A DNA stretch of 64,000 nt from an uncultured Candidatus Binatia bacterium. Its GTDB lineage: Bacteria > Desulfobacterota > Binatia > Bin18. Shown in pieces: positions 13,769 to 59,754 of the stretch. The notes beneath the pieces were generated by a model that saw nothing but the letters and a program-made list of their open reading frames with translations, was not told the DNA's origin and made no database searches. How positions within the stretch are numbered: the stretch's first letter is position 1; every line of letters starts with the position of its first letter. The position numbers were made by a program, and so were the translations under genes. Location: NCBI GenBank assembly GCA_965200965.1, contig OZ241744.1:2912001-2976000 (forward strand). Reading direction: 5' to 3'.

Positions 13769-15466
13769 ATGGAAGCCCTTGACCCCATCGCTTTGGAGAT
13801 TGTGTGGAACCGCCTGATCTCGATTGTCAACGAACAGGCGACAGCCCTCCAGAACGCCTCGTTTACTACCGTGGTCCGCGAGGCCGGCGACCTGTCGGCC
13901 GGGGTGTTTGACATCCAGGGCAATATGATCGCCCAGGCCGTCACCGGCACGCCGGGCCATATCAACACGATGGCGCTGGCCGTGCGCCACTTTTTGGCCG
14001 CCTACCCGTGGCCGCAGCTCGAAGACGGCGACAGCCTGATCAGCAACGATCCATGGCTGACCTCCGGCCACCTCAACGACTTTACGGTTGTCACCCCGAT
14101 CTTTCGCGCCGGCCAGCCGGTCGGCCTGTTTGCCAACACCTGTCACGCGGTTGATGTGGGCGGGCGGATGCTGGGCGCAGACGCCCGTCAGGTGTTTGAA
14201 GAGGGCATCTATGTCCCGATCATGAAGCTCTTCCGCGCCGGCCGGCCCAACGACGATCTGTTCCGGCTGGTCAAACAGAATGTCCGTGCGCCCGAGCTGG
14301 TTGAGGGCGACCTGATGGCCCAGGTCGGCAGCAACGAGGTGGGCGGGGCCAAACTGCTGGAGTTCATGGACGAGGCAGACCTGCCCGGGCTCGATCAGCT
14401 CTCGGACGCCATCCTGAGGACCTCGGAAAAGGCGATGCGGGAGGCGATTGCCGAGCTGCCGCGGGGGACATACCAGCACGAAATCCGGATGGACGGCTTT
14501 GACGAGCCGATCGTGGTCAACATTGCGGTGCGGGTCGAAGGCTCGGACCTGTATGTCGATTTTACCGGCACCTCGGCCCAGTGTGAGCGGGGGATCAATG
14601 TCCCGTTTGCCTATTGTGTGGCCTATACGACCTATCCCCTCACCTGCGCTGTCTCGCCCGGTGTGCCCAATAATGCGGGCAGCTTTCGACCGATTCATAT
14701 CAGCGCCCCGCGGGGCTGCATCCTGAACTGCGCGTTTCCGGCACCGGTTGGCGGGCGGCACATTATCGGCCACTTTCTGTCTACCGCGGTGTTTGGCGCG
14801 CTGTCACAGGCGGTGCCCGATCGCGTTCTGGCCGACGGCGCGGCCAATATCTGGATCACCCAGTTTACCGGCACGGGCGCGGACGGCGAAAACTTTACCT
14901 CTGTCTTCTTCTCTTCAGGTGGAATGGGCGCGCGGCCAGACAAGGACGGCATCTCGGCCACGGCCTTTCCCAGCGGCATCCAGGGCGTGCCGGCCGAGAT
15001 CATTGAAAATGTCTCGCCGCTGCTCATGGAGCAACGCGCCCTTATTCCCGACTCCGGCGGACCGGGCAGATATCGGGGGGGATTGGGCCAGGAGATGGTC
15101 TTATCGGTCAGAACGTCCGAGCCGGTCATCCACTCGGCCATGTATGACCGGACCAAATTTCCGGCGCTGGGCTATCAGGGCGGGAAGAACGGCGGGCTGG
15201 GCGATTTTCTCTTATCGGACGGCAGTCGCCCCCACCCCAAGGCCCAGTACCGATTGCGGCCCGACCAGAAAGTCATCTTGCGGCTGCCGGGCGGGGGTGG
15301 CTTTTACTCGCCTCTCGAACGCGCGCCCGAATTGGTCCGGCAAGACGTGGTGGACGGCTATGTATCCGTTGCCGCGGCCCGGGCCGAGTACGGCCTTGTT
15401 TTGGACGCCGAGGGCGAGATCGACTGGCCACAAACCCGAGGCTTGCGGACGGAGATGAACGCTTAG
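13769..15466 (+). CDS. Hydantoinase B / 5-oxoprolinase family protein
   Basis: LDPIALEIVWNRL, NDPWLTSGHLND, H..DVGG, EEG, DSGGPGRYRGG, PGGGG. Confidence 0.92.
   Translation: MEALDPIALEIVWNRLISIVNEQATALQNASFTTVVREAGDLSAGVFDIQGNMIAQAVTGTPGHINTMALAVRHFLAAYPWPQLEDGDSLISNDPWLTSGHLNDFTVVTPIFRAGQPVGLFANTCHAVDVGGRMLGADARQVFEEGIYVPIMKLFRAGRPNDDLFRLVKQNVRAPELVEGDLMAQVGSNEVGGAKLLEFMDEADLPGLDQLSDAILRTSEKAMREAIAELPRGTYQHEIRMDGFDEPIVVNIAVRVEGSDLYVDFTGTSAQCERGINVPFAYCVAYTTYPLTCAVSPGVPNNAGSFRPIHISAPRGCILNCAFPAPVGGRHIIGHFLSTAVFGALSQAVPDRVLADGAANIWITQFTGTGADGENFTSVFFSSGGMGARPDKDGISATAFPSGIQGVPAEIIENVSPLLMEQRALIPDSGGPGRYRGGLGQEMVLSVRTSEPVIHSAMYDRTKFPALGYQGGKNGGLGDFLLSDGSRPHPKAQYRLRPDQKVILRLPGGGGFYSPLERAPELVRQDVVDGYVSVAAARAEYGLVLDAEGEIDWPQTRGLRTEMNA
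15356..15396 (+). repeat. Direct repeat, copy 1 (3' part of hydantoinase B gene)
   Basis: 34/41 identical to 19881-19921 by manual alignment. Confidence 0.7.
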
Positions 15467-15567
15467 CTGGGAGAGCGTTCGCGGACTTGCCCGCACTATC
15501 GTTTCGCTGTTCTGCGTGCTAGTGTTGAGTGTGGTTCCCGAAACGCGAACACCGAGAATTGGCTGAC

Positions 15568-16653
15568 ATGATGCAGGCACAACGGTCCGGCAAAGACAGG
15601 ACACGACAGAGCCAGTACTGGATGCGCGCCATCTCGTTTGCTGGACTCCATCGTATCGTGAAAGCCGTTGCTGCCTTTCCGAACGGCCTGAGGGCCGCTG
15701 AAATGAACCAGTTGGTGCAAGAGAATAAGCTCGTGCTTACCCGGCGTCGTTCTGCCCCGGCCCCGACGACCCTGTACCACTATCGACGTACTTTGCTTTG
15801 CCTGCGTGCACTCACACGAGATGGGCGGAGGCTGCGTATCAATGCAGCTGACCCTGATGTTCGCAAGTTGCTCTGTCACCCAGTCCCGGCTAGCGGAGAT
15901 CGCACGCTCACTGATTCCGCAAAAGACCATTTCGCCGCGTTGGTCTTAAAGAATGCACCATGCAGGACACTGTTTTTTGATCTGTTCATGCCCGTGGGTG
16001 TCACCGCAGATTCCGTTGTGCGTTTTCGTCACAACGGTTGTCCTGTCACATGGACCCGCCATACCTCCTGTCGTGCCAGGGAGGTGGTTTTTCACAATGA
16101 CACAACAGGCCGTACAGCACGGTGTACTTCACCCGTAAGCGTAGCTGCTCTCCTCTACGGGGTGCGCTACTGGGCGCGTGATGAGTTGGGACTCATAGAC
16201 GAATATTGTCCAAAGGGCGGTGATGGCGTGGTCATGTTTCCTATATTACGCCCCCGATCTTACGCTACGCGAAACGGCCGCTCTGTCCCGCAAATTGCGT
16301 ACCGCCTCCTCTCGATGCGGAACTCAGAGGAATGGACGGTCTTCTCCATTCTTGATCTCATTACTCGGTGCTGCGAAGCGCACCGGCAACCGATCAGCGC
16401 GCTTTTTGACGCGATCGATTGGCTGCTTCGAGAATGGCCGCATCACGTCGTCCTGATCCCGACCTCTCGTGCTCTTGCAACGCTCACGGCGACCTCTGCG
16501 CAAAGGGAGACGCTGGAGTTGCGACAGTACTACCAAGTCTCAAACGGCCCTTACATCTCCCACTTCCGCATACACAAAGACATCGTGTTGAAAACCACGG
16601 AGTTCACAGACCATCATGTCCAACATCCTTCAAAAATTCAGGCTGCATTCTAA
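15568..16653 (+). CDS. Hypothetical protein, first gene of accessory operon
   Basis: Long ORF, lower GC, overlaps the ATPase start; no family recognised. Confidence 0.7.
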   Translation: MMQAQRSGKDRTRQSQYWMRAISFAGLHRIVKAVAAFPNGLRAAEMNQLVQENKLVLTRRRSAPAPTTLYHYRRTLLCLRALTRDGRRLRINAADPDVRKLLCHPVPASGDRTLTDSAKDHFAALVLKNAPCRTLFFDLFMPVGVTADSVVRFRHNGCPVTWTRHTSCRAREVVFHNDTTGRTARCTSPVSVAALLYGVRYWARDELGLIDEYCPKGGDGVVMFPILRPRSYATRNGRSVPQIAYRLLSMRNSEEWTVFSILDLITRCCEAHRQPISALFDAIDWLLREWPHHVVLIPTSRALATLTATSAQRETLELRQYYQVSNGPYISHFRIHKDIVLKTTEFTDHHVQHPSKIQAAF

Positions 16654-17803
16654 TCCTTTCGAGCCTGCCGCGACGGGTATGCCTCTTTCGGGGGCTCTAC
16701 CTCCGCCGGAGACATGGAAGACGGATGTGCAACATCTCCTTGATATTCATCAGACTGGAGAGGGGGTGAAGGCCATTGTCATTAATGGCGCCTATGGGAG
16801 TGGAAAGACTTGCCTGCTGCAATGGCTCCATAGGGACATCCTGCCAAAACGTCAGATCAGGTCGTTCTACTTCGACAATCCAGGGGTACAATTCTATGAC
16901 CTCGCTAACATGTTATTACGCACTATTGGGCGAAAAGATTTTGCTAAATTTATTTGGGAGTTGGCAGGCTCGTATGTGACTGTCCCATATCCGAGGTCTC
17001 TTTTCCAAGAGGGTTTCGAGGAGTATTTGTCCGACGCGTTTCGTCCACATCGGACTCAACCGGACATGACAAAGCCCCTCCAGGATGCTATCCTGAATGC
17101 GCAAGTCACGACCGACGAAGAGATCGCACACTGTCTCGCTCGGATCGTCACCGAGACTATAAAGCAACCGTATTTTGAATACCGGGACTTCGTCCCTCGC
17201 TCAAGAGGCAGTGTGGTCCCTGAAGGAGAGGAAGCCCCCTACTTTGGAGCGATATTGAAAACAATTTTACAAGGGACAAGTGCCAAGGCCATTGCGTTTC
17301 TGATAGACGAATTCGAGGAAATAGGCCTGCAGAAACGGCTCAGCAAGCGAGCGGCGCACGGTTACTTGGCCACGCTGAAACGTCTTATCAACCTTGCTGA
17401 AAACGCGCCGTTCAACTTCTGGATTGTGCTCTCAATGACACCCGATGCTTACCAGACTACCGAAAACCTTGAACCCTCTCTTGTGGCGCGTATTGCGGAC
17501 CGTAAATTCGATCTCAAACCCCTGACGCCCAAGGATGCGCTCGCTCTGATGAAATCCCGGATAGACGCTACTCGCTCAGGAGAGACAGATGAGTCAATGG
17601 GTGCCCTTTTCCCGTTTCCTGACAATATCCTCTTTCATCCCAGCACCTACTCGAATCCCAGGCGGCTTATAAAAGTGTGTTTCCGGGCGCTTGGGCAGGC
17701 AGACGCTGAGGTGCAACTCCCATTTACGGAGGACTATCTTCACGCAATCGAAAAAGAGCTTTATCCCAGCTTGGCTCCAACAGAAACGCAAAACCATGAA
17801 TGA
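16616..17803 (+). CDS. P-loop ATPase (DUF2791/BREX-ATPase-like or STAND-like)
   Basis: NPF start motif, Walker A GAYGSGKT, Walker B AFLIDEFEE, R in SLVARI, FPF and SNPRR C-terminal motifs. Confidence 0.8.
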   Translation: MSNILQKFRLHSNPFEPAATGMPLSGALPPPETWKTDVQHLLDIHQTGEGVKAIVINGAYGSGKTCLLQWLHRDILPKRQIRSFYFDNPGVQFYDLANMLLRTIGRKDFAKFIWELAGSYVTVPYPRSLFQEGFEEYLSDAFRPHRTQPDMTKPLQDAILNAQVTTDEEIAHCLARIVTETIKQPYFEYRDFVPRSRGSVVPEGEEAPYFGAILKTILQGTSAKAIAFLIDEFEEIGLQKRLSKRAAHGYLATLKRLINLAENAPFNFWIVLSMTPDAYQTTENLEPSLVARIADRKFDLKPLTPKDALALMKSRIDATRSGETDESMGALFPFPDNILFHPSTYSNPRRLIKVCFRALGQADAEVQLPFTEDYLHAIEKELYPSLAPTETQNHE

Positions 17804-18578
17804 TCGACAGGATTTTTGGAAGGTCGTATTCCTGGACACAAATACCCTCCATTACATCGGAATCTACCTGGAATATGCGCAGGAGAAATCCCTATATCCT
17901 TATTCTCAGGACATCAAAGAGAAGGCGATAGCGAACATCAACGAACAAGCGAAAGCCGATGTCAAGCCAAGCCTTAAGCGGGGGCTGGAAACTGTCGACT
18001 ATTTCCGTTCGTCTGGTGTACAGGTCCAATACTCGCCCATCTCTGAGCTTGAGTTACTCACAGGGAAAGCGAGAGGAAGAGCCCTCTTGAGGGCAGCAAG
18101 AGAAGGGGTGCCGGACCGGATGTACTCGCGCTTTCTTGAAAAAGAAATCAGCGCCCGAGTGGGCGTCGACGACTTGAAGGAGGTCAAGGAGAAGGTGGAC
18201 GGGTTAACTTCACTGCTGGAAAAATTGGATGTTGTTGTCAAGATGAGCCGCGGTGACGAAACGCGCGATGTGCTGGAGTTGGCAAAGGGTATCAATGGGC
18301 TGATTTATATGCAAGCTATGGACAGTATTATTTATGCGAGTACGCTCGTTGCCAAAGCGGATTACCTGTTTACCAGTGATAAATATCTCAGAAATACTAT
18401 AAACAGAATACAGGGTCTACGCAGTTCGGGTGACACTACCCGCGATCGGGAAATCAGAAGACAATTACGCCAACTCGTCAGCAACATCATACCTGGACCT
18501 GGAACTGCCGATAAAGTGGAATTGCCAAGTGCCCATACGATTACAGCTGGCGGTACAGCTAAACCGGAGATACCGTAA
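17796..18578 (+). CDS. PIN-domain protein (putative RNase)
   Basis: VVFLDTNTL, SELEL, MDSIIYAS, LFTSD acidic tetrad; 8-bp overlap with the ATPase. Confidence 0.75.
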   Translation: MNDRQDFWKVVFLDTNTLHYIGIYLEYAQEKSLYPYSQDIKEKAIANINEQAKADVKPSLKRGLETVDYFRSSGVQVQYSPISELELLTGKARGRALLRAAREGVPDRMYSRFLEKEISARVGVDDLKEVKEKVDGLTSLLEKLDVVVKMSRGDETRDVLELAKGINGLIYMQAMDSIIYASTLVAKADYLFTSDKYLRNTINRIQGLRSSGDTTRDREIRRQLRQLVSNIIPGPGTADKVELPSAHTITAGGTAKPEIP

Positions 18579-18615: not shown

Positions 18616-19830
18616 ATGAAGTGGCACGTTACCGAACGGGCTGAGTGGAAACATTGGATGACACCAAGAGCCGCGAGGGAGAAGGCGGTCCACCGCTGGT
18701 ATCTTTTTCCTCACAGCTTTACGGGCGAACTCGTCTACTCTTTAGTTGATGAATGGAGATTGACCGAACACGATACGATCCTTGACCCCTTTACGGGCGC
18801 GGGGACCACACTCTTGGCCGCGAAGGAAAAGAGCCTTTCGGGGACAGGTTACGATCTTTCCCCCCTCGCCGTTCTTGCCTCGAACACCAAGACAGCTACT
18901 TTTGTACCGGAGAACTTGGAGAAGCTAGGGCAGACGCTCCAACACGCCTCACAGTCGAGAAGCGCGTTGCCTATGAAGCGAACCTACCCAGAACTGGTAC
19001 GAAAAGCGCTGCCTGAGGGACGGCTTGAAGCGTTCGATACGATTGCTACGCGTATAGACACCCTTGACGGTTCTTCGTCGGAGCGAGACTTCTTTCGGCT
19101 GGCGTTGATTTCCATCATCCCGCATTTCAGTCATGCGGTTGCAAACGGGGGCTGGTTGAGGTGGTTGCGCCAGGGCGCTGGCACCGAAAACGTGTGGAAC
19201 TCTTTCAAGGATCGAGTCGAGATGATGTTATCGGACGTTCGTGACTCGGAACCCCAAGGCGCTGGCAATTGGGAGGCCCGGGTCGCGGATGCCCGCACCA
19301 TCCCAGCGCCCGACGCATCGTATTCAGCCGTGATTACTTCGCCGCCATACCCGAATCGTCACGACTATACGCGAATCTTCGGTATAGAATTGATGTTTGC
19401 GTTTCATGGCTGGGAGGCAAATCGAGCCCTGAGATACCAGAGTTTCCATTCCCATCCAGAAGCTCGCCCGAAACGACCTCCGGCGAAAGGGTACGAAGCA
19501 CCGAAATCGCTGGAAAGAAATATTTGCCATGTGAGAGACCAGCGTATGCAACAGATGCTACGGGGGTACTTTTTTGATATGTATCTCTGTCTGTGTGAAG
19601 TTGAACGTGTGTGTCGTGCAGGCGGAAAGGCTGCGTTCGTGGTTGGAAACGCCCGCTACGATGGCAGCGTCATTCCTGTTGACGAGTACAGCGCGGAAAT
19701 CGGCGAGCGGGCAGGGCTCATATGCAAGGAAATACGAGTGGTACGTTGGCGCGGAAACAGTGCCCAGCAGATGGGGAAATACGGGCGCGTGGCATCCCGA
19801 GAGAGCGTTGTGCTCTTTGAGAAACGATGA
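18616..19830 (+). CDS. DNA amino-methyltransferase (probably N4-cytosine, alpha motif order)
   Basis: HRWY.FPHSF, ILDPFTGAGTT (motif I) before VITSPPYPNRHDY (motif IV), VVGN, RESV. Confidence 0.88.
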   Translation: MKWHVTERAEWKHWMTPRAAREKAVHRWYLFPHSFTGELVYSLVDEWRLTEHDTILDPFTGAGTTLLAAKEKSLSGTGYDLSPLAVLASNTKTATFVPENLEKLGQTLQHASQSRSALPMKRTYPELVRKALPEGRLEAFDTIATRIDTLDGSSSERDFFRLALISIIPHFSHAVANGGWLRWLRQGAGTENVWNSFKDRVEMMLSDVRDSEPQGAGNWEARVADARTIPAPDASYSAVITSPPYPNRHDYTRIFGIELMFAFHGWEANRALRYQSFHSHPEARPKRPPAKGYEAPKSLERNICHVRDQRMQQMLRGYFFDMYLCLCEVERVCRAGGKAAFVVGNARYDGSVIPVDEYSAEIGERAGLICKEIRVVRWRGNSAQQMGKYGRVASRESVVLFEKR

Positions 19831-19880: not shown

Positions 19881-19921
19881 GGCTATCTGTCCGCTGCCGC
19901 AGCTTGGCCCGAGTACGGCCT
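19881..19921 (+). repeat. Direct repeat, copy 2: degenerate hydantoinase B 3' fragment
   Basis: Encodes GYLSAAAAWPEYGL versus GYVSVAAARAEYGL in the intact gene. Confidence 0.7.
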
Positions 19922-20286
19922 CGTGCGGATGCCTGGAATGAGAGAGAAAAAGAAGGCTGGGGGGCCACAAGAGAACCCGGCCTGGAGAACCTACTGGAAA
20001 CAGGGAGCCATGCGCCTAGTCACCTGCCTTAAGCACCCTGGTAAGACAAACGAATAAGGTGGGCGAAATATCGGGAATCAGTTCTGACCCAACTTGGGCT
20101 ACACCGGCTGAGGCAAACAGGCAGACTCCAAGCACGACAAGGCTGGTGCAACACGGCATAAGCGCTATTCTCTCTCCGATGTCCCGACGGGTCAATCTCG
20201 TTTTTGATGCGCCAGGGGCTGGGCCGGACACGCGTCCTTGACCTTCTTCCCCCACCAGGCTACGCCAGAGGAAGAGGGGGGAGGGG

Positions 20287-25288: not shown

Positions 25289-25291
25289 GGG

Positions 25292-30553: not shown

Positions 30554-30859
30554 TCAATTCTTTCTTATGGCATAGCTCTTCCAGTTGGGCACATGCGCCG
30601 TCAGCAGGGCCTTGAAGAGCCGACCGTGGTTGGGAACACGCAGGTGCAGCAGCTCATGGGCAATGACGAAATCCTGGAATCCCGTTTCCTGAGCGGCCAA
30701 GTCGGCGGCGAAGGTGACAATTCCCGAGCGTGAGCAAGACCCCCATTTCCGCCTCATGGGCTGAACCCGCACCTGCCGCGGCCGGACGCGCAAGCGCCAC
30801 GCCCAGCATGCAGCGCGGGCGCGGAGGCTCTGGCCCCGGTCTGTGTCAGGTGCCGGCAT
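30554..30859 (-). CDS. M48/YgjP-like zinc metallopeptidase (short form)
   Basis: [25 protein letters not shown]; overlaps the hsdR stop. Confidence 0.85.
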
Positions 30860-33797
30860 TGTCGCCTGGGCCCAGAAGAATAGTGAGCATACGCCCGACA
30901 ATGTGGCTCCGGCGGTCCCCGCTCAATCCCAGAAGCGGGCGATACAGAGCCGCCCGCAGCCGCCGCTCCTCCTCTGCGCTGTCGGCTGCGTTGGGGAAGC
31001 GGCTGCGCAAGGCTTCCACTTCCCGCGCCATGTTTATTGTCGATATGTCGGCGGCCTTCAGGGCGGGGTCATCCTTGAGTGCCCAGTGAATGCCGAAGGC
31101 GCGGGGCGACAGCCCGCTGTTCTTCAGGGCCGTGAGCGCCGCTTCTTTCTCCTCGGCCAGGCTGGCCAGCAGTTCCAGTGCCGCCAGCCCGGTCGTTTTG
31201 CGGTCTTCCAGGTCCTTCACGATGCGTTCGGCGCGCTCCTTCAGGGACAGCAGCACGGACTGCATATCCGGCGTGTTCTCGACTTCCTGTCGCAGGCCGC
31301 GCACGAGGTTGAATACCTTGGCCTCGGCTGTCCCTCGCTCGCCACGAAGCGCTGTGAGGGTGCTCACGTCAAACATGACTGTCTTTGTCGGCTGGCCAAG
31401 CCCTTGCTGGGCCGCGCTCTCCTGCACCATGAAGCGTGTCTTGTTGGCCAGATCAACGGCATAGTTGACGCGGCTGGCGTAGGCGTTCCGCACGGCAGTG
31501 TACAGATGGGCGAGCCGCCTGTAGGTCGTGATGTGGTCGCGCAGGGCCGGCGAGGGTGACAGAATCTCCCACAGCGCCTCAATCTCTTTGTAGGCTTCAC
31601 AGAACGCCTGGCGCGGCTCCGGGTCAATGAAGCGCCCATAGACGATTCTTTCGAGACCTTCGTCCGCGCTGCCACCCCCTGCGTCGGCGAGGGAGTCTGT
31701 CCTGGCCTTTTCAATCTTGTTCAGAAAATCCTGTCGCAACAGGTCGAGGTCTTCAATCACATTGCCAACATCGGACGAGTCAAACTGGAGGGCCTTTTTC
31801 AGTTCGCGCAGCACACCCACAAAGTCAACGACGAGGCCGATGGGTTTGCGGACGCCGTCCGCGTCTACATGGGGGCGGTTGACGCGGGCGATTGCCTGCA
31901 AAAGAACATGATCGCGCATTGGCTTGTCGAGGTACAGGCAGTACAGGAGCGGGGCGTCGTAGCCCGTCAGCAGCTTATCCGTCACAATGAGTATCCTGGG
32001 GTTCTCGCCCGCCTTCTTGAACAGCAGGCGTACATCGGCCTCGCGTTCTGGAGAGAGCTGGAGGTCGGCGACGAGCGGCCGGTCAACAATATCGGCGGCG
32101 TTGCGGGTATAGACCGGCGCGGTCCAGGCGGGCGGCAGGAGTGCGTCGAGGGCGCGCTTGTACTTGGCACAGGCTTCGCGGTTCACGCCGACCAGGAACG
32201 CCTTGTAGCCGAGTGGCGCGACATTCTCCCTGAAGTGCCTGGCGACAAAGGCAGCGACCTTGTCTATGCGGTCATCCGCGGTCAGGAAGGTCCGCAGGCC
32301 AACCGCCCGGTCAAGGACGGTGTTGAGTTCGTCAATGTCGCTCACGCCCTCAGTCTCGGCCAGGGCAAAGAACTCGCGATCGAGCCGCTCGGCCGGCATG
32401 GTCATGGTGCTCGGGGCCAGGGTGTGGCGGAGCGGCAGGGTTGTTTCGTCTCTGATGGACTCAGCGATGGGGTACTTGTCGAGATATTTCTGGTCGTCGT
32501 CCGCACCGAATATCTTGAAGGTGCTCTCGCCCTGCGTGGTCCGGTCAATCGGCGTGCCGGTGAATCCGATGATCGTGGCCTTGGGCACAGCCGCCATCAG
32601 GTAGGTGCCCAGCTCTTTGGCGACCGAGCGGTGCGCCTCGTCAATGAACACATAGACGTTGTCGCGGGTGGTGGCGTCTTTCTCCAGACCCTCAAACTTG
32701 TGGATCATGGACAGGATCAGGCCACGCTTGTCGGTGCTGAACAGCTCCCGCAGTTCGGCTCTGGAGTTTGCGTGCCACACCGCGATGTCCTGCCGCTGCA
32801 TCTCGCCGAGCAGCTTTTCGACCCAGCCCGCGAGCTGGCCTTCGAGTTCCCTGCGGTCCACCACGACCACCACGGTCGGCGTGCGGAACCGGTGGCGGTC
32901 TTCCAGGATCAGCCGCGCCGCGGTGAGCAGGGTAAAGGTCTTGCCCGACCCCTGGGTGTGCCAGATCAGCCCGCGCCGCTTTGTCGGGTCGGCGCAGCGT
33001 TCAACGATGCGGTCCACCGCGACGCGCTGGTGCTGGCGCAGCACCGACTTCCGCGTCTCGCCGTCTTCGACGTAGAAGAGAATCCAGTCGCGCAGGGTGC
33101 GCAGGAAAGCGGCCGGCTCGAAGAACGACTGAACGGCAAAGCGGTAGCTCTCCTGCGGCCGTTCCTTCCAACGCGCCATGAAGCGGCGCGAGGCGTTCCA
33201 GGTCACGCCGTACCAGTAGTCAAGGAGATGGGTGACGTTGAAAAGCTGGGCCGCGGCCAGCAGCTCGGGCGTCTCTTTTTCATAGCGCTGCAACTGGGTG
33301 ATACCCCGTTTAATGGCGTCGGCGTCTGTCGGGTTCTTGTGCTCAACAATGGCGGCCGGTACGCCGTTGACAACGAACATCAGGTCTGCACGGTTGCCCT
33401 TGCGGGCCGGGGGCTTGAGCCTCCACTCCCAGCTCACATGCAAGGCATTGGCGGCCGGCGTCTCAAAATCAACGAGCCGGACGGGCCGCTGACGCCGCTC
33501 GGCCTCGTCGTAGCACTGCCGCTCGCCACGCAGCCAGGCGAGCATCTCACGGTTGCCATCTATCGTTGGTGGCAGCGCTTCGAGCTTCTCGATCACGGCG
33601 CGGATAGCGTCCGCGGGCAGCCACGGGTTGAAGCGCCCAAGGGCGGCCTCGACCTCATCGCGCACCAGTGTCCCGGCCTCGCCCCCGCGCTTGCGCAGCG
33701 CGGCATGGGGCGCAAGCGGCGTCCAGCCGACCGCCGCGACGTGGCGGATCATCGGAAACTGGACGCTGGTTGCCTCGGTGATACTGAGGTCGGTCAC
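30846..33797 (-). CDS. hsdR: Type I restriction endonuclease subunit R
   Basis: ADL..VNGVP..IVEHK nuclease motif, [38 protein letters not shown]. Confidence 0.95.
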
Positions 33798-33800
33798 GAC
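33568..33800 (-). repeat. 233-bp direct repeat, copy in intact hsdR 5' end
   Basis: 8 mismatches versus 35659-35891 by manual alignment. Confidence 0.92.
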
Positions 33801-35485
33801 GAAACTTCCCTGTCGGCCTTCAGCAGGGCGTGAACAAGGTCGGCCCGGCGGAAGGTTGCCGACAGGCGTTGCAGCGTCCGCTCTCTGTCGCTGAACAGCG
33901 GGGCAAGCGCCTCTCCAATCTGTTGCTCGGCCCGCGACACATAGCTGTTCGCCTCGTGTTCGATCAGGTCCCGCGCCTGCCCGAAGTTCCGGTGGTCAAG
34001 CTGCTGGAGCTTAACCTCCATATCTTTCAGGAGATAGCGACCCATGAGCATGGCGATGAAACGCGAACCATAGGCGAGAAAGTCAGGCGCGTCTTGGGGC
34101 GGCCTCTTGCGGCGGTTTTCCGCGTGTCTGAGCAACAGGGCGGCGCTGATCGCTTGTGCTCCGTTCAGGTTTTTCTCAAAGATCGTATCGTACAACGCGC
34201 CGAAACGTTCCCGGCCCCTGAACCTGGCCTGATGCGGACGGTTACGCCAGACCGCCAGGACCGCTTCGGCAATGACTGCACTCGTAAACTCATCAGCCGT
34301 CACCGTCCGGTCCTCACGTTTGGCGCGGTACTTGTAGCCCAAACCGGCAATCGCCTCGGCGAGGTTTTTTTGATGTGGATCGTTGGCTTTCAAATCTCGC
34401 AGATCGACCGGATTCTGGCTGTTGGTGGCGAAGGTAATGGCCTCAACAAGTTCGCTGTCGTCCGGCGGAAGCTCGTATATGCGGACAAGCACTTCCGCCG
34501 CTCCGATTTCTGGTCCGATTTCCGCGTATACCCGCTGAACGGTGCGGGCGGTCTGTACGCCGTTCACGATTTGCAGGTCGTTCACCTGCACGGGCCAATT
34601 GACCCGTTGCAGCGCGTTGTGGCGAAACTGGGAGCAGGTGAGGGTGAGGCCATTGTTATAGAAATAGAAGTTGGCCCGCTGGTCCGGGTCGCGCAACGTG
34701 TCCGCCACCGCTTCGTTCACGCGGTTGCCGGCAAGGCCCAGATAGTGGCGGATATTCCTTTCAAATAATTTATTGTCGTAGGTCGTGGTCAGATGGACGA
34801 GTTCGGCGACGGACATGCGCCCGATCAAGACCCGCCGAAAGTCAAAGGTTTCGACGGTCGCTTGCCCGCTGAGCTTCAACTCGGCGCTGATCGGCTGTCT
34901 GGCCTTCAAGAGTGCGAGGATATCTTCGGGGCCAATATAGCGCCATTCGACCTGCCTGCTGAACTCCTTTTCGGCGTTGTTGATACGTTGCTGCGCTTCC
35001 CCTGTCCACCGCTTCCCATTGTTTGCCGCAACCGCGGTCACGCGCGGAATTGCGCCCCCTTTGACAAACGACCGGATTTCTTCGACCCGCTGCTCGAGTC
35101 GTTGATTCAAACTGACGGTGGTTGTCGGGTCAAAGAGTGTGCCGATTGCGTCAATCATCCTGGCGATTGCGTTTTCGGGGAAGGCTGAGTCTCCGCTGAG
35201 GTCTGTTTTGTATTTTCCCTGGATCAGGATGATGGGGATCTCACCGTTATCGGGCGGATAAAAGTACAGCGCGTCAACCCCGAAATCGTTGCCGCCATCG
35301 ACAATGCCGTCAAACGCCTCCTCGTCGGTCAGGTCGAATGCCGTTTTGGCGACAAGGAACAGGAAGGCTGCGGTGCGTTTCTTGTGCTCGTCGCTTCCTA
35401 GCCGCAGTTCAGCGGCAAAAGTATCGGTGTGTTTCTCGATGATGCCGGAGACCTGCTGGTCAACGATCTGCGTCGCTAGAGACAT
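33794..35485 (-). CDS. AIPR family (abortive infection phage resistance) protein
   Basis: [10 protein letters not shown]...IQGK N-terminal nuclease-like motif; [38 protein letters not shown]. Confidence 0.9.
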
Positions 35486-35658
35486 GGCCCTCCTCCATTA
35501 TCTACTGTTGGTCATATAGCTCCTGCTTCGGCTACTGACGTGCTGGCACGAGACCTTTTGCTTGAAATGTAGTTGCGCATGGCCTTGCCCTCAAGAACTT
35601 GCTGGTAAGTTGAAGATATCGCGCTTCAGTTGTTCGTACACGGGCATTCCTGGTTTTC

Positions 35659-38546: not shown

Positions 38547-39817
38547 GCCTGAAGAGCCGGCGTTACCCCTGACAAATCAAGCTCACCCACTCGAATCTCG
38601 CCCGTCATCAGCTTGTGCAGCAACGCCTTGAACAGGTCGTCCAGCGCCGCCCGTTTCCTGCGGTGCAGGTCAATTTTGCGGTCTATGGCGTCAAGGATGA
38701 TGACGATTTCACGTTGCTCGTCAAGATTGGGAGCAGGCATCAAGAGCTCGCCGAGCCGTGCATGTGAAAGGTTCGGAATCGTCGTGCGGTTGCCGGCACC
38801 TTCATAAATGCCTCGATGAAGAAAGCCTTCCTCAAGCCAGAACATTGCAAATTTTGGGACGATCCGCCCAGGGGCCAGGGGACGCAAGCGGTGTAGGTGG
38901 TTCTGAAATGTGGTGTTTGTGCCCTTAGCCTCATCCTCCCAAACGGCGGCCCGTCCAATTTCTCCTCCCTCGCATACTAATAAGTCTCCTTTCTTCAGGT
39001 CACGGTCTCCAATCGACGCCGGGTCAATGCGCATGTGACTCACCGTGCTTAACTCTATACGTCCCCAATAGACATTGGATGTGCGAAGGAAGGGAACGCC
39101 CTGTCCATTTTCCGACAAATTCCTTTTCAGAGAAAATCCTTGTACAATATCAAAAAGCGTACCGAACGGTGTCGGCTGCCAACTCTCCGGTATTAGGCCG
39201 ATCTCGGTTTCCTTCTGGGCTTCGCCCCGCAGGCCGCGTGTGAACAGCGTGTGCATTGCGGAGCGTTTGAGGTCATGGGCCGCAGCTAATGCGTTGTCCT
39301 GGTTCGCTATTGAACGCCTGACGAAATCGAGCGTACTGGCTATTGAAGACTGCTCCTCGAAAGACGGAACAAAAATATCTATCCGGTTGATCTTTTCACG
39401 GTTCAAGGTATTTCCCTTGATTTGTCGGTCTTGTAGAGCCGTGTAGTCAACCTGTGAGAGAAAATAGCCGAGGTATCTCTGATTGATTCCGCTCTTTGGG
39501 ATAATTGAGATTATCGCTTCGTTGTGACAAGCGTTGATTCCGAGTGTTGCAATGCGTCCTATAGTCAATTTGAAACTCATCAGAAGAGTTCCGGCGGGAA
39601 CGATCTGTCCACGGAACACATTCTCCATTGCTTCGGAGGTAACTGTTTCTTTCGTTTTGGTAATCAGACCGAAGTCATTCATGTCTGATATCGTGACCCA
39701 TGGGACATTTGCATTGCTTCCTTGCCAATAAGCAGAGTTATCCCGAGCTGGAGTACGACCAGCTTTGTAGGTTGCTATGTCTTCAAAACGACATACTGTC
39801 CAGGAATCAGGAATCAT
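38543..39817 (-). CDS. hsdS: Type I restriction specificity subunit
   Basis: IPDSW/IPESW repeats, two TRDs, P..EEQ..I conserved helices, KLMTGEIRV. Confidence 0.93.
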   Translation of the reverse strand: MIPDSWTVCRFEDIATYKAGRTPARDNSAYWQGSNANVPWVTISDMNDFGLITKTKETVTSEAMENVFRGQIVPAGTLLMSFKLTIGRIATLGINACHNEAIISIIPKSGINQRYLGYFLSQVDYTALQDRQIKGNTLNREKINRIDIFVPSFEEQSSIASTLDFVRRSIANQDNALAAAHDLKRSAMHTLFTRGLRGEAQKETEIGLIPESWQPTPFGTLFDIVQGFSLKRNLSENGQGVPFLRTSNVYWGRIELSTVSHMRIDPASIGDRDLKKGDLLVCEGGEIGRAAVWEDEAKGTNTTFQNHLHRLRPLAPGRIVPKFAMFWLEEGFLHRGIYEGAGNRTTIPNLSHARLGELLMPAPNLDEQREIVIILDAIDRKIDLHRRKRAALDDLFKALLHKLMTGEIRVGELDLSGVTPALQA

Positions 39818-41069
39818 TGTCAGGGGCCCTTTTAGGAATGTTGAACGCCTGGACAGCCAGATAGATATCCCTGCCAGGATCGTTTTTTTGCCGAAATGAG
39901 TATCGGGTATGCGTATCGTTGACTTTGCGCAGTTTGCGCTTGAAATTTGGATGCTGGGGAATAGTTTTCTCTATGCGGTTGAGGACATTAGTGAAATCAG
40001 CATTCTTGCTGAATATCACCAGCGCTGCTTTTGTATCTCTCCATGTAAGATATCCAAGAATCTGCTCTATGGCAGCGTGCATCGCCTTTGGTCCAGACCA
40101 GAACTTGCATTCGGCTATGAACACGTTCCGACCATCTGCACGGATCAGAATGTCTGTCTTGCCCTGTGCGTTGAATGTCTCACCAGTCGCTCCGCCCTCG
40201 TAGAGACCATTTAGGCTCACCAAGATAAGATCTCGTATCTGTTGTTCCTCCAGATGCACAAAGGTACTCGGGTTTCGCTCAATTGATATGGAGAGATTAT
40301 CAATGACCTCTAAAATATCGTTGTATTGAGCATCAGAAAGCTCTGGCTCCGGCTTGAATGTTTCTTTGGGCGATGATGGTACGTCAATTTTGCGTTTCTT
40401 TCGGACTATTGGGATAGCGGCAGTAGCCGCGGTGTTCTCACGTCTCTTGAGCGGTAAACCAATGGCCTTCACCATATCGGCTTGTTCGAGAATCCGCTGC
40501 TTGCGATCTCGTACACACTGCTCGGCTAAAGATTGAACACGCCCATTCCAGCCATTGCAGTCGTTTTTCACATAGTTCAAATTATGTTCAATACGATCTA
40601 TTTCGTTCAGAATTGCTTGACGAGTTTGATGAGCGTCAAGCCTAACATCTTGAAACGAGATTAGAATCTCAGATTCCGATATGCGTCCACGCGGCGGATT
40701 GGATGCAAAGGTTGATGCTTGGAATCTGAAGAAATCTCCGTCTCCCTCAAAGGGAATAGAGATGGTTACATATGACCCGGAAACGTAATGCGGATGGCTT
40801 CGATCAAATATCCCATATTCAAAACGGCCGCTTACGTCAATGCGCGTTTCGCCCTCGCTTTCGATATACCTTTGGTCGGGGAGCAAGCGGGGTGGATCAA
40901 GCGTGAATTTTTCGACAAGGTAGGCAACCAGATCGGATTCACTCGTCGCTAGAATCTTGTTTCGCTCCCAACCCTCCACCTCCTTGATAATCTCAGTCTC
41001 ATAGGCGTCTATCAATGCGCGAAGATCCTTTTCGCGGAAGAGAAGATAGTGTTCTGAACGTGACATCAT
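39807..41069 (-). CDS. Hypothetical protein with C-terminal PD-(D/E)XK-like nuclease domain
   Basis: EQQIRD..GETFNAQGKTDILI...FIAECKFW..Q..GYLTWRD; low GC; overlaps the hsdS start. Confidence 0.7.
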   Translation of the reverse strand: MMSRSEHYLLFREKDLRALIDAYETEIIKEVEGWERNKILATSESDLVAYLVEKFTLDPPRLLPDQRYIESEGETRIDVSGRFEYGIFDRSHPHYVSGSYVTISIPFEGDGDFFRFQASTFASNPPRGRISESEILISFQDVRLDAHQTRQAILNEIDRIEHNLNYVKNDCNGWNGRVQSLAEQCVRDRKQRILEQADMVKAIGLPLKRRENTAATAAIPIVRKKRKIDVPSSPKETFKPEPELSDAQYNDILEVIDNLSISIERNPSTFVHLEEQQIRDLILVSLNGLYEGGATGETFNAQGKTDILIRADGRNVFIAECKFWSGPKAMHAAIEQILGYLTWRDTKAALVIFSKNADFTNVLNRIEKTIPQHPNFKRKLRKVNDTHTRYSFRQKNDPGRDIYLAVQAFNIPKRAPDNDS

Positions 41070-41138
41070 TTTTACTCCATGCCCAGCGTATTGACTATAC
41101 AAGATCGCAGTCCACAAATGAACATTCTTCCGATCTCG

Positions 41139-43016
41139 TCAATTGTTCGGCAGTTCTTGAACAGAAAATTCATCAGACTCAGGCAAATGCAAGAGAGATT
41201 CCATCAGCGTCGCTAGGGAGGCGTTAATTTGGTGCGCTTCCTCATCAAGACGCTGCATTTCGGCCAGGATATCCCTGATTGGGCGCTGGGTTGTGGCGTC
41301 TGTCTGCCCCACCCACCGGCTCGGGCTCAGGTTGTAGTCGGCTGCCGCTGCCTGCTCTCGGGTGATGACGGCAAGCTCGCCGTCAACCGGCTCGCCCTTC
41401 AGGAAGGCCGCGGCCAAGGGCCGAATGTCCTCCTCGGGGATGAAGTTCTTGGGCCGGCCTTTGCGGACGTGGCGGCTGGCGTTCAGCAGCACGATGGTGT
41501 CCTGGCGGGCCGGCGGCTTGCGCTTGGACAGGACCACGATCACGCCGGCGGCACTGGTGTTGTAGAACAGGTTGTCGGGCAGCAGGATCACGCCGTCAAT
41601 CAGGTCACGGTCCACAAACCACTTGCGGATGTTGCGCTCCCGGTCCTCATGCCTGCTGCCCGACCCGCGTGTCACCGCGCCGGTGTCAAGCACAACCGCG
41701 GCCCGCCCACGCTCGTTCAGGCAGGCTAGGCTGTGCTGAAGCCAGGCCCAGTCTCCCTTGCCGCTGGTCACGCCGCCCCGCAGGCGAAAACGGTCAAACG
41801 GGTCGTTGGCGAAGACCTCCGAACCGAAGGGCTGGTTCCACATCGGATTGGCAATCACAATGTCGTGGCTGGCGAGCTGGCCGGAGGCGGTCTTGAACCT
41901 GGGGTTGAGCATGGTGTCGCCGCGGTCGATTGCAACCGTCATGTCGTGGATGATGGCGTTCATGTGGGCCACGGCGTAGCTCTCGGGCTGAAGCTCCTGG
42001 CCGGAGAGCTTGAGCGGCACCCGGCTGATGGGGTCAAGCGCACGCGCCACAAGTTGCAGCTTGACCAGCAGCCCAGCTGAGCCGCAGGCGTAGTCATGAC
42101 AGTCCTCGCCGGGTTTGGGGCGCATCAGGTGGGCCATCAGAAAGCCGACCTCGGTCGGGGTGAAGAACTCGCCGGCACTCTGGCCCGAGCCCTCGGCAAA
42201 CTTGCGCAGCAGGTATTCATACGCCCGCCCCAGAAAATCGGGCTGCACATCGGCCAGGCCGAGCCGGTAGCGCGGATCGGAAAAGGTCTCAACCACCGCG
42301 GTGAGCTTGGCCGGGTTGATCTCACGCTCGCCATTGCGCTCGGCGGCAAAATCAACCAGGTCAATCACGCCCGAAAGCGAAGGATTGTGGCGGACGACCG
42401 CCCGCACCGCCTTGGTCAGATGCTCCCCAATGTCCCTGGGCCGGGTGCTCTGGCCCTGCTCGTCAGCCGGCCACTCATAGCCTTCACGGCCGCTGATCAC
42501 GCCCCAACGCGCTTCCGGCGGCAGGTAGAAGCGCAGCAATTCGTGGTCGCGCTCGGCAATCTCCCTGGCAAGCTCGCGGTCCGCGTACTCCTCGGCCAGC
42601 CGCTCAAGCTCGTCGTCAAAAACGTCCGACAGACGTTTGAGGAAGAGCAGCGGCAGCAGGTAGTCCTTGAACTTGGCGGCGTCTTTCTCCCCCCGGATGG
42701 AGCAGGCCGCGTCCCATAACATCTGCTCCATCGTCTTTGTTGACGCAACCGCAGAACGGCTGTCTTTGCGTCGCCTCCGGCGTGTCACCCGCGCCGCGGC
42801 TTCGGGAGGGGCCGATTCCATTGGGTTGATGCCGGCCTCCGCGGCCAGGGTGGCGATAGCCTCCTGGGCAGCCTTCTGCGGCTTGGTCACGCCGCCCTCC
42901 CAGCGGTTGATGCTGGCGAAAGAGACACCGAGCCGGTCGGCAAGCTGTTCCTGGCTGAGATCAAGGCTGGCGCGCAGGGCGCGCAGGGTAGCCGGTATGG
43001 CGCGTGAATCTGTCAT
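41139..43016 (-). CDS. hsdM: Type I R-M methyltransferase subunit with N-terminal XRE HTH
   Basis: [26 protein letters not shown]; [45 protein letters not shown]. Confidence 0.93.
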
Positions 43017-43035
43017 GTTTTCCTCTATGAGAGAG

Positions 43036-43064
43036 CAGATATGACAGATATCGCAGAAAGTCAA
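43036..43064 (-). promoter_or_regulatory. Putative hsdM promoter with overlapping GATAT-N5-ATATC operator
   Basis: TTGACT at 43064-43059 on the minus strand, weak -10, inverted repeat at 43038-43052. Confidence 0.4.
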
Positions 43065-56918: not shown

Positions 56919-58073
56919 TTAGCTTGAAAGAAATCTCCAGTCAGACGGGAAATCACGGCTTCGGGCAATGGAGAGTAGCGGCCCAATTGCCCCTGACAAC
57001 GCTTCGCGCAAGGCCGCCTTGTCTGGAACCCGGTCAATCACATCCAGATTCAATTCCGTGGAGTACGAGTCGAACAGGTCTTCCCATTTCTTCCTGTCGG
57101 GAAAAGTGTGGAACGAGGTAATGGCCAGGAATTGCAAGTCGGTGAATGCGTCGAAATAGGCCGCATTGTCAGGCAGCTTGTCGGACTTTTCGGCGTTGCC
57201 GAATACGCTGACCGGGGCCAGATTCCACAGGTTGTCATGGACGACAAAGGACCACGGCACATAATGGTCAAGGGCGAAGTTGTCCGGGGCAACGCTCTGC
57301 CGCGTATACATGCAGGGGAATTGTACTCCCCGCGCCTCTATCACCCGCCGCCAGAAATTGCGCTGGCGTCTGGTGTTGGGCTTGGCGTTCTCATCGAGTT
57401 TGGTGACAACCGCCGGGGTCACGGGATTCATCCTCTGCATGTAACGCGCCCAATGCCACAAGGTCCATGATTTGAGAATGTGTTCGTTGCGGACGATGTA
57501 TTCCACCCATTTCGGATGAACGATGACATCGCCGGTAGGCGAAAAACGATAGGGCGGCGGTGCGCTCTGCTCGAAGCCCGCTTGTGCCAGATCACGGATG
57601 CGCTGAAACTTCGGCGGTCCGGTCATGCCGCGAGTTTCGGCCTCAAAGAACGGGCTGAGGAAGAGAGAAGGCACATACTTTGTCAGCCCCTCAACGATAG
57701 TGCCGGGAATATCTTGAGGCCGGGCGGCAAATACCTTCCCGCGTAGACGGGTGAGAAGTTTACGCCCCCATTGGGGCGAATCTTCCAGTTGCCGGAACCA
57801 CAGCCCTGTCTGGTCATCCTTGCCGGAACGGAGGCGAAAGACGCATATCGGCCTGCGCGCCGCGTCCAGCATTCCAGCCGCTAAACGCCGCAGGGAGATT
57901 TTCGCAGAACGCACTCCCTCTTCCGCCAGGATGGAAAACAGAGCCGATGCCCAGAGAAACTTATAGGAGGTATTGGTGGACCGGAACGCCGTTGCGAACT
58001 TGGCGATATCCAATCCATCACAGGGAGGCGGGACAGTCCGGCTTCCGCCACGGGGATCAATGTCGCTGGGCAT
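56919..58073 (-). CDS. HNH endonuclease domain protein (restriction-like)
   Basis: N-terminal SYKFLW; C.YT...LDHYVPWS...DNLWNL......N..KSD. Confidence 0.85.
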   Translation of the reverse strand: MPSDIDPRGGSRTVPPPCDGLDIAKFATAFRSTNTSYKFLWASALFSILAEEGVRSAKISLRRLAAGMLDAARRPICVFRLRSGKDDQTGLWFRQLEDSPQWGRKLLTRLRGKVFAARPQDIPGTIVEGLTKYVPSLFLSPFFEAETRGMTGPPKFQRIRDLAQAGFEQSAPPPYRFSPTGDVIVHPKWVEYIVRNEHILKSWTLWHWARYMQRMNPVTPAVVTKLDENAKPNTRRQRNFWRRVIEARGVQFPCMYTRQSVAPDNFALDHYVPWSFVVHDNLWNLAPVSVFGNAEKSDKLPDNAAYFDAFTDLQFLAITSFHTFPDRKKWEDLFDSYSTELNLDVIDRVPDKAALREALSGAIGPLLSIARSRDFPSDWRFLSS

Positions 58074-58279
58074 GGGAAACCGGACATGAATGCGGGGCGG
58101 ACGCGCGTCCGCCCCGCCGGTGACAGATGGTGTCAGGCCCGGGCCAGGGGGCCGCGCAGGAGTTGGCCGGGCAACGCCCCGGTGTGTTCGTTGTTGGGCA
58201 GTACGACTTGGCCGCTAACCACGGTGGCAGGAAACCGGCCGCTTTCTGCTTGAGCCGGCGGGCACCGGCCGGCAGGTCG
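58061..58279 (-). repeat. 219-bp direct repeat: orphan amidohydrolase 3' end + palindrome + HNH start
   Basis: 3 substitutions and one 1-bp deletion versus 59535-59754. Confidence 0.93.
58092..58117. other. Perfect 26-bp GC palindrome (hairpin; second copy at 59566-59591)
   Basis: GCGGGGCGGACGC-GCGTCCGCCCCGC just downstream of the amidohydrolase stop; no clear U-tract. Confidence 0.7.
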
Positions 58280-58540
58280 CGCGTCTTCCGCAGTTTCGGG
58301 ACCGCCCTGATCCCTCTCTCTCAGGTCCGTTACCTCCCCCACTACGAGTCCTCCCGGTCCTCAATAGCCCAGAGTTCTCACGGAGGCAAGAGATCAGGCC
58401 AAAAGAGGGGAGAGGAAAAAGGGCGGGGGGCGGACGCTCCCGCTCCGCCGGGGACACGCAAAATGCAGAACGTCTCAGAAATCCAGCGGATTTCGGTCAA
58501 ATTGACAATGGCGAGCGAAGGGCGTTGATTTTTCTTCTCT

Positions 58541-58651: not shown

Positions 58652-58864
58652 ATGGCTCACCGCAAAATCGCTGCACACAAGAGTCCAGAACGCCCCGAGT
58701 TGCAGAGGCTCCTGGACAAAGCGAAGGAGTCGGAGATAACTGAGGAACAGCTACAGCAGCAGCGTATCAGTTTCATCTATGGCAATGCGCCAGAGGGATC
58801 AGGAATCACCAAAGAGATTGCTGAGCGCGCAGCTTCTCGGATACGAGTTACTGACGAGTCGTAA
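58652..58864 (+). CDS. Small protein upstream of Fic, putative antitoxin
   Basis: 70 aa, strong AGGAGGAGG RBS, QQRISFIYGN..IT motif; role inferred from position. Confidence 0.7.
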   Translation: MAHRKIAAHKSPERPELQRLLDKAKESEITEEQLQQQRISFIYGNAPEGSGITKEIAERAASRIRVTDES

Positions 58865-58897: not shown

Positions 58898-59470
58898 GTG
58901 CTTATTCTTGAGAAGGACGACCCAGCCCTGTTTCGTCGAGTCCAGGCGCAAAACCTGAATCGACAATATGGGCTTCTTATGAACTGCATCGAAGTTGGTA
59001 TTGAGAAAGGACCAGTTTCCTTTGATAAATATCTGCTTTGGGCGCTCAATCATGTGGCAGTAGCAAATCTCTGTCAATTGGGTGGCCGATTTCGTAAGGA
59101 GCCCGTTTCTATCGGCAATCACCAGCCTCCCCATTTCTTGGAGGTTGATGATTTGATGGACCGCTTCATTACTACTGTCCAGGAAAACTGGTTTGATCTA
59201 ACTCCAACAGCACTTGCCGCTTATGGCCTTTGGCGGTTGAATTGGATACACCCATTTGTGGATGGTAACGGAAGAACAGCCCGTGCAGCCTGCTATTTTC
59301 TAGTATGCGTCCGTGCCAAGTCGTTTTTACCAGGAACAAAAATCCTTCCCGATCGAATACGAGAGTCCAGGGAAAATTACATAGCTGCACTAAGGGCAGC
59401 TGATGAAGCCTGGGAGAGAGAGGAGTCTTGGACTTTTCCCAAATGGAAGAGTACATTGCTCAATTGCTAG
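58898..59470 (+). CDS. Fic family protein, probable C-terminal frameshift
   Basis: HPFVDGNGRTAR canonical motif; GA tract at 59414-59421. Confidence 0.88.
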   Translation: MLILEKDDPALFRRVQAQNLNRQYGLLMNCIEVGIEKGPVSFDKYLLWALNHVAVANLCQLGGRFRKEPVSIGNHQPPHFLEVDDLMDRFITTVQENWFDLTPTALAAYGLWRLNWIHPFVDGNGRTARAACYFLVCVRAKSFLPGTKILPDRIRESRENYIAALRAADEAWEREESWTFPKWKSTLLNC

Positions 59471-59534
59471 GTGAACAATTATCACACCCCTGAAACAGGA
59501 AAAGCGATAGAGCAGCAAACCGTTCTCTGGGCAG

Positions 59535-59754
59535 TGTCGCTGGGCATGGGAAACCGGACATGAATGCGGGGCGGACGCGCGTCCGCCCCGCCGGTGACAG
59601 ATGGTGTCAGGCCCGGGCCAGGGGGCCGCGCAGGAGTTGGCCGGGCAACGCCCCGGTGTGTTCGTTGTTGCGCAGTACGACTTGGCCGTTGACCACGGTG
59701 GCCAGGAAACCGGCCGCTTTCTGCTTGAGCCGGCGGGCACCGGCCGGCAGGTCG
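59535..59754 (-). repeat. 220-bp direct repeat (copy overlapping the intact amidohydrolase 3' end)
   Basis: Matches 58061-58279; ends 13 nt into an HNH start (ATGCCCAGCGACA). Confidence 0.93.

Follow-up and report, generated by a model that had tools for sequence, protein, structure and literature searches.

Gene-end repeats around defence-type cassettes in a Candidatus Binatia genome as probable scars of additive allele exchange

A 64,000-nucleotide stretch of the genome of an uncultured Candidatus Binatia bacterium (assembly GCA_965200965.1, contig OZ241744.1, positions 2,912,001 to 2,976,000; hereafter the window) carries three cassettes, named c1, c2 and c3, each bracketed by a direct repeat of the end of a neighbouring host gene. 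We consider such repeats to be, with better than even probability, scars of additive allele exchange. At several loci the apparent duplication is likely to consist of two alleles with one homologous and one illegitimate junction between them, because repeat pairs interleave, relatives hold single versions of the slots, c3 retains a remnant of a further gene ("gene Z"), and junctions show microhomology of 0–10 bp. Direct support comes from c3 and from loci outside the window, and c1 and c2 are an extension of the reading. The wider proposal, that defence loci in this lineage grow chromosome-wide by allele stacking through housekeeping recombination and that "long target duplications" are generally the shared flanks of two alleles, is offered tentatively.

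The source genome (G000) is a single 3.62-Mb contig of 61.5% G+C, and its sequence is present in runs recorded as sponge metagenomes. It was compared with the congeners G003, G004, G005, G006 and G007, with G020 from outside the genus, and with contigs from runs X1, X5, X11 and X13; the small-share runs X7–X10 and uncovered stretches of X5 were excluded as evidence. X11 showed zero differences to G000 and is perhaps the source sample. All three repeats were confirmed as real, on the evidence of contigs of these public runs or of related genomes. Loci outside the window are named by their position in the source genome (e.g. genome 451k).

The c3 slot lies between two genes on the minus strand, an intact amidohydrolase (59607..61322, PF07969) as host gene and an intact HNH gene (56919..58073, PF13395), the latter being the resident of the slot and also present in an empty allele found in X13. 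The right repeat (59532..59754, minus) holds the intact amidohydrolase 3' end, a terminator and the first 13 bp of the HNH start, and the left repeat (58058..58279, minus) a 147-bp stub of the amidohydrolase 3' end with a 1-bp deletion, the terminator hairpin and the HNH start; the two copies are 97.8% identical over 223 columns with one gap. Between them lie a 70-aa open reading frame (ORF) encoding a putative antitoxin (58652..58864, plus), for which no significant family hit was obtained, and a Fic/Doc protein gene (58898..59470, plus, PF02661). The 35 bases joined to the stub (58280..58314, minus) read GIRAVPKLRKT. Gene Z, which is weakly PAPS-reductase-like, comes after the amidohydrolase in G004 and G007, where it starts GIRAVPKLRRK and GIRAVPPLRRT, respectively; the top two distinct matches to the c3 inner end in 1.5 Mb of relatives' loci were to this gene (G004, E 7e-5; G007, E 0.01), and it is absent elsewhere in G000. 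Past the junction, gene Z of G007 resembles the amidohydrolase in 16 of 20 columns, as judged from the relative's allele. With its inner end matching the beginning of gene Z, c3 can be read as amidohydrolase, Fic pair and gene Z start joined to amidohydrolase 3' end and HNH gene, which on sequence grounds would be two versions of one slot. The sequence-only reading had overlooked that c3 contains part of a different allele of this locus.

In X11 the c3 repeat forms a contig of its own with a depth of 60, compared to 33–42 for cargo and flanks, and in X1 the cargo runs up to the right repeat; the slot is filled in both runs. The Fic gene also abuts the right repeat in X5, with 44 differences. 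A 10.5-kb contig of X13 joins 58060 to 59535 with one repeat copy and represents the empty allele; its copy is of the intact type, which is compatible with an ancestral site or with a loss. For the left junction, X11 alone has a contig that crosses it, and does so by 30 letters, one below the standard of the tool. Upstream of the 70-aa ORF, a 33-bp tandem duplication (58541-58608) is found as one copy in X1. The corresponding slot in G007 and G004 (L036:10246-15623, L046:3520-8921) holds a cluster running from the weakly PAPS-reductase-like gene to DUF6339-like genes.

Overlapping repeat pairs were interleaved in 13 comparisons from eight clusters and nested in two, both of the latter in one cluster; independent target duplications would be expected to yield nested or side-by-side pairs. 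At genome 2250k the source genome reads flank A, cargo 1, flank B and then flank A, cargo 2, flank B, and its relatives carry these versions singly: the first is the sole version in G007, the second the sole version in G005 and G003, and G006 lacks both. G007 likewise holds one version in single copy at genome 451k and at genome 2879k, with G004 empty at the latter locus; the other version of these two loci was not found in the relatives. A reciprocal case occurs in G007, where an interleaved 330-bp/211-bp pair surrounds a gene for a 1540-aa protein and G000 has one copy. Exact overlaps at the junctions amounted to 10 bp (451k), 0 bp (2879k), and 2 and 3 bp (G007), these being all four junctions for which both parents are available. 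One-sided host homology combined with a non-homologous junction was seen at c3 and at four loci outside the window. The 1540-aa gene (L251:6430-11052), bracketed by the 330-bp repeat, gave no Pfam hit and is absent from G000. Beside the 451k cluster, a tmRNA gene (L054:1311-1663) lies just upstream of nudC, and in several relatives kilobases of other DNA stand between the two.

The genome-wide extent of the pattern was determined by local self-alignment of G000 for low-copy pairs of 35–600 bp with at least 80% identity, 0.4–10 kb apart. This gave 53 direct pairs vs 3 inverted ones, and a single pair in a shifted-window control on half of the windows. The c3 pair was dropped by the low-copy filter because its terminator hairpin matches itself, and was added by hand to give 54 direct pairs in 43 loci. 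After removal by eye of 21 pairs (16 whole loci) representing paralogs, intragenic repeats, and glycan or unannotated loci, 33 pairs in 27 accessory loci remained. Their lengths form a continuum between 37 and 406 bp. In 25/33 pairs a host gene end is found no more than 60 bp away from one or the other copy, compared to 13.2 for random pairs (30/54 vs 20.7 without curation); a first version of this test (28/33 vs 9) was discarded as its control was unfair. The bracketed host genes include recA, pncB, nudC, tldD and an Iso_dh gene. Bracketed cassettes recur in G007 and G004, so that the gene-sparing route that the sequence-only reading had proposed from three cases is recurrent, and it does without a local integrase. 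By the same tile procedure, 1.2 of the 3.6 Mb of G007 gave 15 direct and 4 inverted pairs and the matching stretch of G000 17 direct and 1 inverted, paralogs included in both. For 16 pairs examined, G007 has single-copy sites for five G000 cassettes, one with a different left flank. G020 gave no pairs in 160 kb, a stretch too small to interpret.

Domains of restriction-modification (RM), toxin-antitoxin or abortive-infection type were found in 18 of the 27 curated loci, which corresponds to 18/43 before curation, 10 of the 16 removed loci never having been scanned for domains. Eleven control stretches with 46 proteins held one methylase and one HNH protein (1–2/11 stretches). The cargo comprises four AAA_21 ATPases, DarT with a macro protein, a PvuII-type system, other methylases, GmrSD, MqsA, HicB, Phd, Panacea, CAP12-TIR, AIPR and Fic, and the PvuII-type cassette at genome 2718779 carries both restriction and modification genes. 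In the reverse count, 43/416 foreign-looking genes are bracketed vs 20/2199 host-like genes, and the route is therefore accessory-specific, covering about one tenth of the accessory genes. The counts do not show a specificity for defence genes, methylases being bracketed no more often than other foreign genes. As side observations, 45 methylase-like and 9 HsdS-like phmmer hits were obtained in the 3.6 Mb, despite no integrase having been found, and DarT (L060:3842-4478), which is whole in G007, falls into two ORFs in G000.

Under the proposed mechanism, donor DNA with another version of a slot would recombine by homology on one side only, and its other side would be joined where a short microhomology occurs within the host gene common to both. 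One repeat copy would then complete the host gene, the other would remain as a stub that later decays, and the cell would retain old and new cargo in tandem. Outcomes that break a gene would presumably be purged by selection, leaving an intact gene and a stub. The donor would probably belong to the same or a close species, and the process would be RecA-dependent; the route by which the DNA enters is likewise a matter of inference. Two known sub-routes give the same product: a linear fragment may undergo homology-facilitated illegitimate recombination (HFIR), or the DNA may be trimmed and circularised and then enter by a single crossover.

Of the two cassettes to which this reading is extended, c1 follows an intact hydantoinase B/oxoprolinase gene (13769..15466, plus, PF02538), with one repeat copy within its 3' end (15356..15399, plus) and the other as a decayed 3' stub (19881..19924, plus). 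The copies 15356-15396 and 19881-19921 are identical at 34/41 positions, as had been claimed, and BLAST extends them to 15399 and 19924 (36/44). The cargo, all on the plus strand, consists of an orphan ORF of 316–374 aa depending on the start and without family (15529..16653), an AAA_22/NACHT-like P-loop ATPase with an Sll1717-like match under the cut-off (16616..17803), a 260-aa protein (17796..18578) and a type II DNA methyltransferase (18616..19830; PADLOC MTase_II, E 3e-57); a methylase is thus present, and no restriction enzyme was recognised. The 260-aa protein is placed by Atlas (score 0.92) with clusters in which 58–84% of the members have PF01850, and it had no Pfam hit; the PIN label given earlier stands as a lead only. 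When five congeners were searched, G007 was found to carry the cassette with an identical stub junction, its stub measuring 88 bp at 93% identity, from which it follows that c1 predates the split from G007 (~92% identity). The cassette is present without a stub in G005, the sites in G003 and G004 are empty, and G006 holds other DNA there. The four-gene block (15529-19830; orphan, ATPase, PIN-like protein and methylase) is retained in both G007 and G005, with PADLOC matching the methylase only, and is a candidate for an undescribed defence system.

The c2 cassette sits inside a type I RM operon on the minus strand that also carries PDC-S54 and a TIR-SLOG-TIR cluster. The host gene hsdR is intact (30846..33797), with one repeat copy at its 5' end (33568..33800) and the second as an hsdR 5' stub (35659..35891), and the previously reported identity of 225/233 was reproduced; 7 of the 8 differences are derived on the stub copy. 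The insert contains the AbiU-like AIPR gene (33794..35485; PF10592, PADLOC AbiU) and a spacer (35486..35658, no strand assigned), which has indels in three other runs and no match in G000 or in the relatives' loci. Upstream of the stub follow the TIR, SLOG and ThsB-TIR genes (35910..38546) and hsdM with an N-terminal helix-turn-helix, PDC-S54 and hsdS (38543..43064). Contigs cross the stub junction in 4/4 runs from four studies. Empty alleles, called for in the sequence-only reading, were found for c1 (G003, G004) and c3 (X13), and none was found for c2 in four runs and five genomes. The AIPR allele of G000 differs by 2–4% from those of X1, X13 and X5, and X13 differs by ~0.4% near c3, a pattern that suggests recent allele exchange. 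Among other variable parts of the operon, the ThsB-like TIR gene (35910-36548) lacks 35916-36384 in X13 and X5 and has other DNA over 35998-36252 in X1. The c2 operon of G007 contains a tandem, with an hsdS 3' repeat around a PIWI gene and an AIPR fragment; the PIWI (argonaute-like) gene encodes 682 aa (L033:7756-10526) and lies inside the type I RM operon between the hsdS 3' repeats. In G004 (L043:3715-9557), a TIR-SLOG-TIR cluster and remnants of relaxase and coupling-protein genes are bracketed by 301-bp repeats; the corresponding site of G000 is empty.

The three repeats in the window are mutually unrelated in sequence, and the cassette interiors have 53.2 (c1), 57.4 (c2) and 50.4% G+C (c3), all below the genome value. 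In line with the sequence-only reading, no integrase or transposase family was found in the cargo of the three cassettes and no tRNA or tmRNA in the 64-kb window. Across G000, the only tyrosine recombinases were XerD and an XerC-like protein beside hslV, and there were no hits to PF00239 (resolvase), PF07508 (large serine recombinase), PF00665 (rve), PF01609 (DDE_Tnp_1) or Ku; the transposase search covered PF00665 and PF01609, with other insertion sequence (IS) families not searched. By eye, no dispersed multi-copy element of IS size was seen among repeats of at least 500 bp, and no integron integrase scored above the cut-off, no attC model having been run. The lineage appears to be without integrases and IS elements. 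ComEC, DprA, RecA and two PF00437 ATPases are encoded by open frames in G000, where recA is itself flanked by a stub of the kind described here.

Several observations weigh against additive exchange or limit its reach. Tandem paralogs also give interleaved pairs and likely account for two of the eight clusters, and one further cluster is readable as a single repeat split by an insertion. Both versions were recovered in relatives only at 2250k, and for neither c1 nor c2 did the relatives or runs yield a donor version. The stub-free c1 of G005 fits a donor state and a loss of the stub alike, and excision, which the sequence-only reading had thought the repeats would allow, is no more than compatible with the X13 empty allele, which either direction of change would explain. 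The presence of the same 31 bp of HNH leader in the two c3 copies calls for an earlier event in the donor. Five out of 43 full-length methylase-like genes are bracketed, and all five were search seeds. Lastly, in comEA of G000 (L223:1131-1700; G000:C1:2590313-2590780) the 5' part has been replaced and an in-frame stop precedes the helix-hairpin-helix DNA-binding domain, and present-day transformation is therefore doubtful; the gene is open in 6/7 congeners.

The main rival is a true long target duplication, the reading that the name of the known class implies. Here wholly foreign DNA would be attached at each end by non-homologous joining, to staggered positions on a single chromosome or on two sister chromosomes at a break or fork, and both copies would be the recipient's. 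Many simple cassettes, c1 and c2 among them, may have arisen in this way; as the explanation of the repeats we regard it as unlikely. In its favour, several pairs are 99–100% identical (111/111, 47/47, 279/280), and exact empty sites exist in G007 at 2033k, 2222k and 2242k; identity is, however, also expected of conspecific donors, X13 being ~0.4% different. Cargo has been relocated between unrelated genes, the DarT/macro block standing after pyrF in G007 and after the Iso_dh gene in G000, which implies a fully non-homologous step at some time, and the conjugation-gene remnants within the 301-bp G004 bracket around the TIR cluster imply that mobile-element DNA has been captured too; fully non-homologous capture thus also occurs in this genus. 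Sequence differences between copies also agree with this rival. In 10 polarised pairs, 34 substitutions and two deletions are derived on the stubs vs 8 substitutions on the intact copies, so that the divergence is mostly stub decay. Half of the stub substitutions are synonymous (17/34 vs 0.34 expected, p 0.036), as are 6/8 differences of the hsdR pair; the pooled pN/pS over 25 pairs is 0.38, and the counts over five bins (46, 29, 26, 24 and 38) give no clear clustering of differences at the truncated end. The synonymous share is at most a weak allelic signal, and its use as proof of two functional alleles was rejected in view of the decay seen in the polarised pairs. Against a true duplication, no Ku was found in G000, and the process cannot produce interleaved pairs or the gene Z remnant of c3; a recipient origin of both copies is disfavoured at c3, 451k, 2250k and 2879k.

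A sister-chromosome tandem duplication with a microhomology junction, after which two-sided recombination or a deletion changes the cargo of one copy, would yield the same interleaved layout and junctions. Some plausibility comes from allele exchange of the kind seen for AIPR and from the proposal that hotspots free of mobile elements undergo two-sided recombination at the core genes beside them (PMC5635113). It would, however, need two rare steps per lineage at many loci, and no low-copy tandem duplication of identical cargo was seen by eye among the listed pairs, which makes it distinctly improbable. Placement in trans of non-autonomous islands by a lost integrase, an integron integrase or XerC/D, with a substitute gene end supplied, is very unlikely. 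It would draw on the resemblance of gene-end repeats to the attL/attR of elements entering protein genes, on the tyrosine-recombinase matches in G004 (15) and G005 (4), and on the tmRNA beside the 451k cluster. Prophages and islands such as e14 at icd enter the 3' end of a protein gene, bring a substitute end, and leave one intact gene and one displaced stub as observed here; they also use an integrase and a fixed site, neither of which was found. G000 has only XerC/D and G007 two matches, and repeat lengths are continuous. In an all-against-all comparison, the ends of the 33 pairs had no core in common, apart from overlapping neighbours and a small family that touches three loci; dif-like cores, as defined by a core motif, lie near 2/33 pairs vs 2.9 expected. 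On inspection by eye, a "leader" that recurs near DarT turned out to be an hsdS start and not a site motif. Mis-assembly, with strain variants joined in tandem in a metagenome assembly, had been named as the refuting outcome and is highly improbable as an explanation of the repeats. G000 is listed with 5.74% contamination, and neither the left c3 junction nor the interleaved loci outside the window have independent read support, which for the latter also counts against additive exchange. The c2 junction recurs in all four runs and the c1 junction is shared with G007, while the greater depth of the c3 repeat contig in X11 and stubs with deletions and a stop codon, unlike living alleles, likewise argue against an artefact. 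Additive allele exchange remains our preferred reading.

Ever since the class received its name, the way in which restriction and other defence genes enter chromosomes without an integrase, and leave long duplicates of gene ends behind, has awaited an explanation. With dozens of cases in a single genome that has close relatives, testable predictions can be made: the far end of a cassette should hide a second host flank, pairs should interleave, and donor alleles should occur in the population. If the mechanism is general, hosts would accumulate defence genes rather than swap them, using housekeeping enzymes alone, and it would explain gene stubs otherwise taken for decayed prophage ends or assembly errors. 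Two further repeat features were noted in the genome: an 807-bp stretch (window 6620-7426) containing an ORF without Pfam hit has a second copy at G000:C1:2365520 (96%), and two large arrays of ~2.4-kb repeats with 90–93% identity (G000:C1:271755-305588 and 1131704-1165221) are probably giant repeat-protein genes.

Insertion with long target duplication of RM systems was reportedly described by Nobusato in 2000. The class was defined for such systems by Furuta 2010 (PMC2853133), which leaves the mechanism open and suggests double-strand breakage; its Table 3a lists unique direct repeats of 24–423 bp with 86–100% identity, no mobile-element genes and empty sites in relatives, the repeats often spanning a start or stop so that the target gene stays intact, and the species are mostly naturally competent. 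The cassettes described here share with it a low-copy direct repeat of more than 30 bp (44, 233 and 223 bp for c1, c2 and c3), an insert below 20 kb without mobile-element genes (4481, 1858 and 1252 bp, respectively), and a one-copy empty site in a relative for c1 and c3. They fit the known class except in RM cargo: neither c2 nor c3 holds a restriction or a modification gene within the insert, and as no insert holds both, c1 to c3 are not RM members.

The junctions resemble those of HFIR and of the trimmed-circle single crossover described in PMC3240628, in that one junction is homologous and the other is blunt or at a microhomology; HFIR junctions usually have 3–10 bp of microhomology. In the E. 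coli experiments reported there, one-sided homology led to duplication of part of the homologous segment in 56/60 clones, by 109–950 bp in the 14 sequenced, a product of the circle route, compared to 37–406 bp for the repeats found here. Laboratory HFIR usually deletes ~1 kb of resident DNA by the anchor, whereas in the present cases the resident cargo is kept and the shared gene itself contains the break. An HFIR-like addition has been proposed for the effector-immunity arrays of the Vibrio type VI secretion system (PMC5361080), which likewise gain a module at a variable slot with the old part kept and no integrase; those arrays concern three effector loci with orphan immunity genes, in contrast to housekeeping gene ends genome-wide. 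Hotspots without mobile elements, as presented in PMC5635113, also require only housekeeping recombination and donor DNA with host flanks; there, double homologous recombination at the core genes that flank them replaces the cargo and leaves no repeat, whereas here cargo is added and a stub is left. No report of genome-wide interleaved cases was found in the incomplete part of the open-access literature that the search covered. Compared to the Furuta 2010 class, the present genome differs in having about 27 loci, in a cargo that includes Fic, AIPR, DarT/macro, AAA_21 ATPases, antitoxins and TIR proteins, and in that several loci are likely two alleles and not one duplicated target. The class itself is thus already known; what is added here is a genome-wide count, together with evidence for stacked alleles and a mechanism that can be tested.

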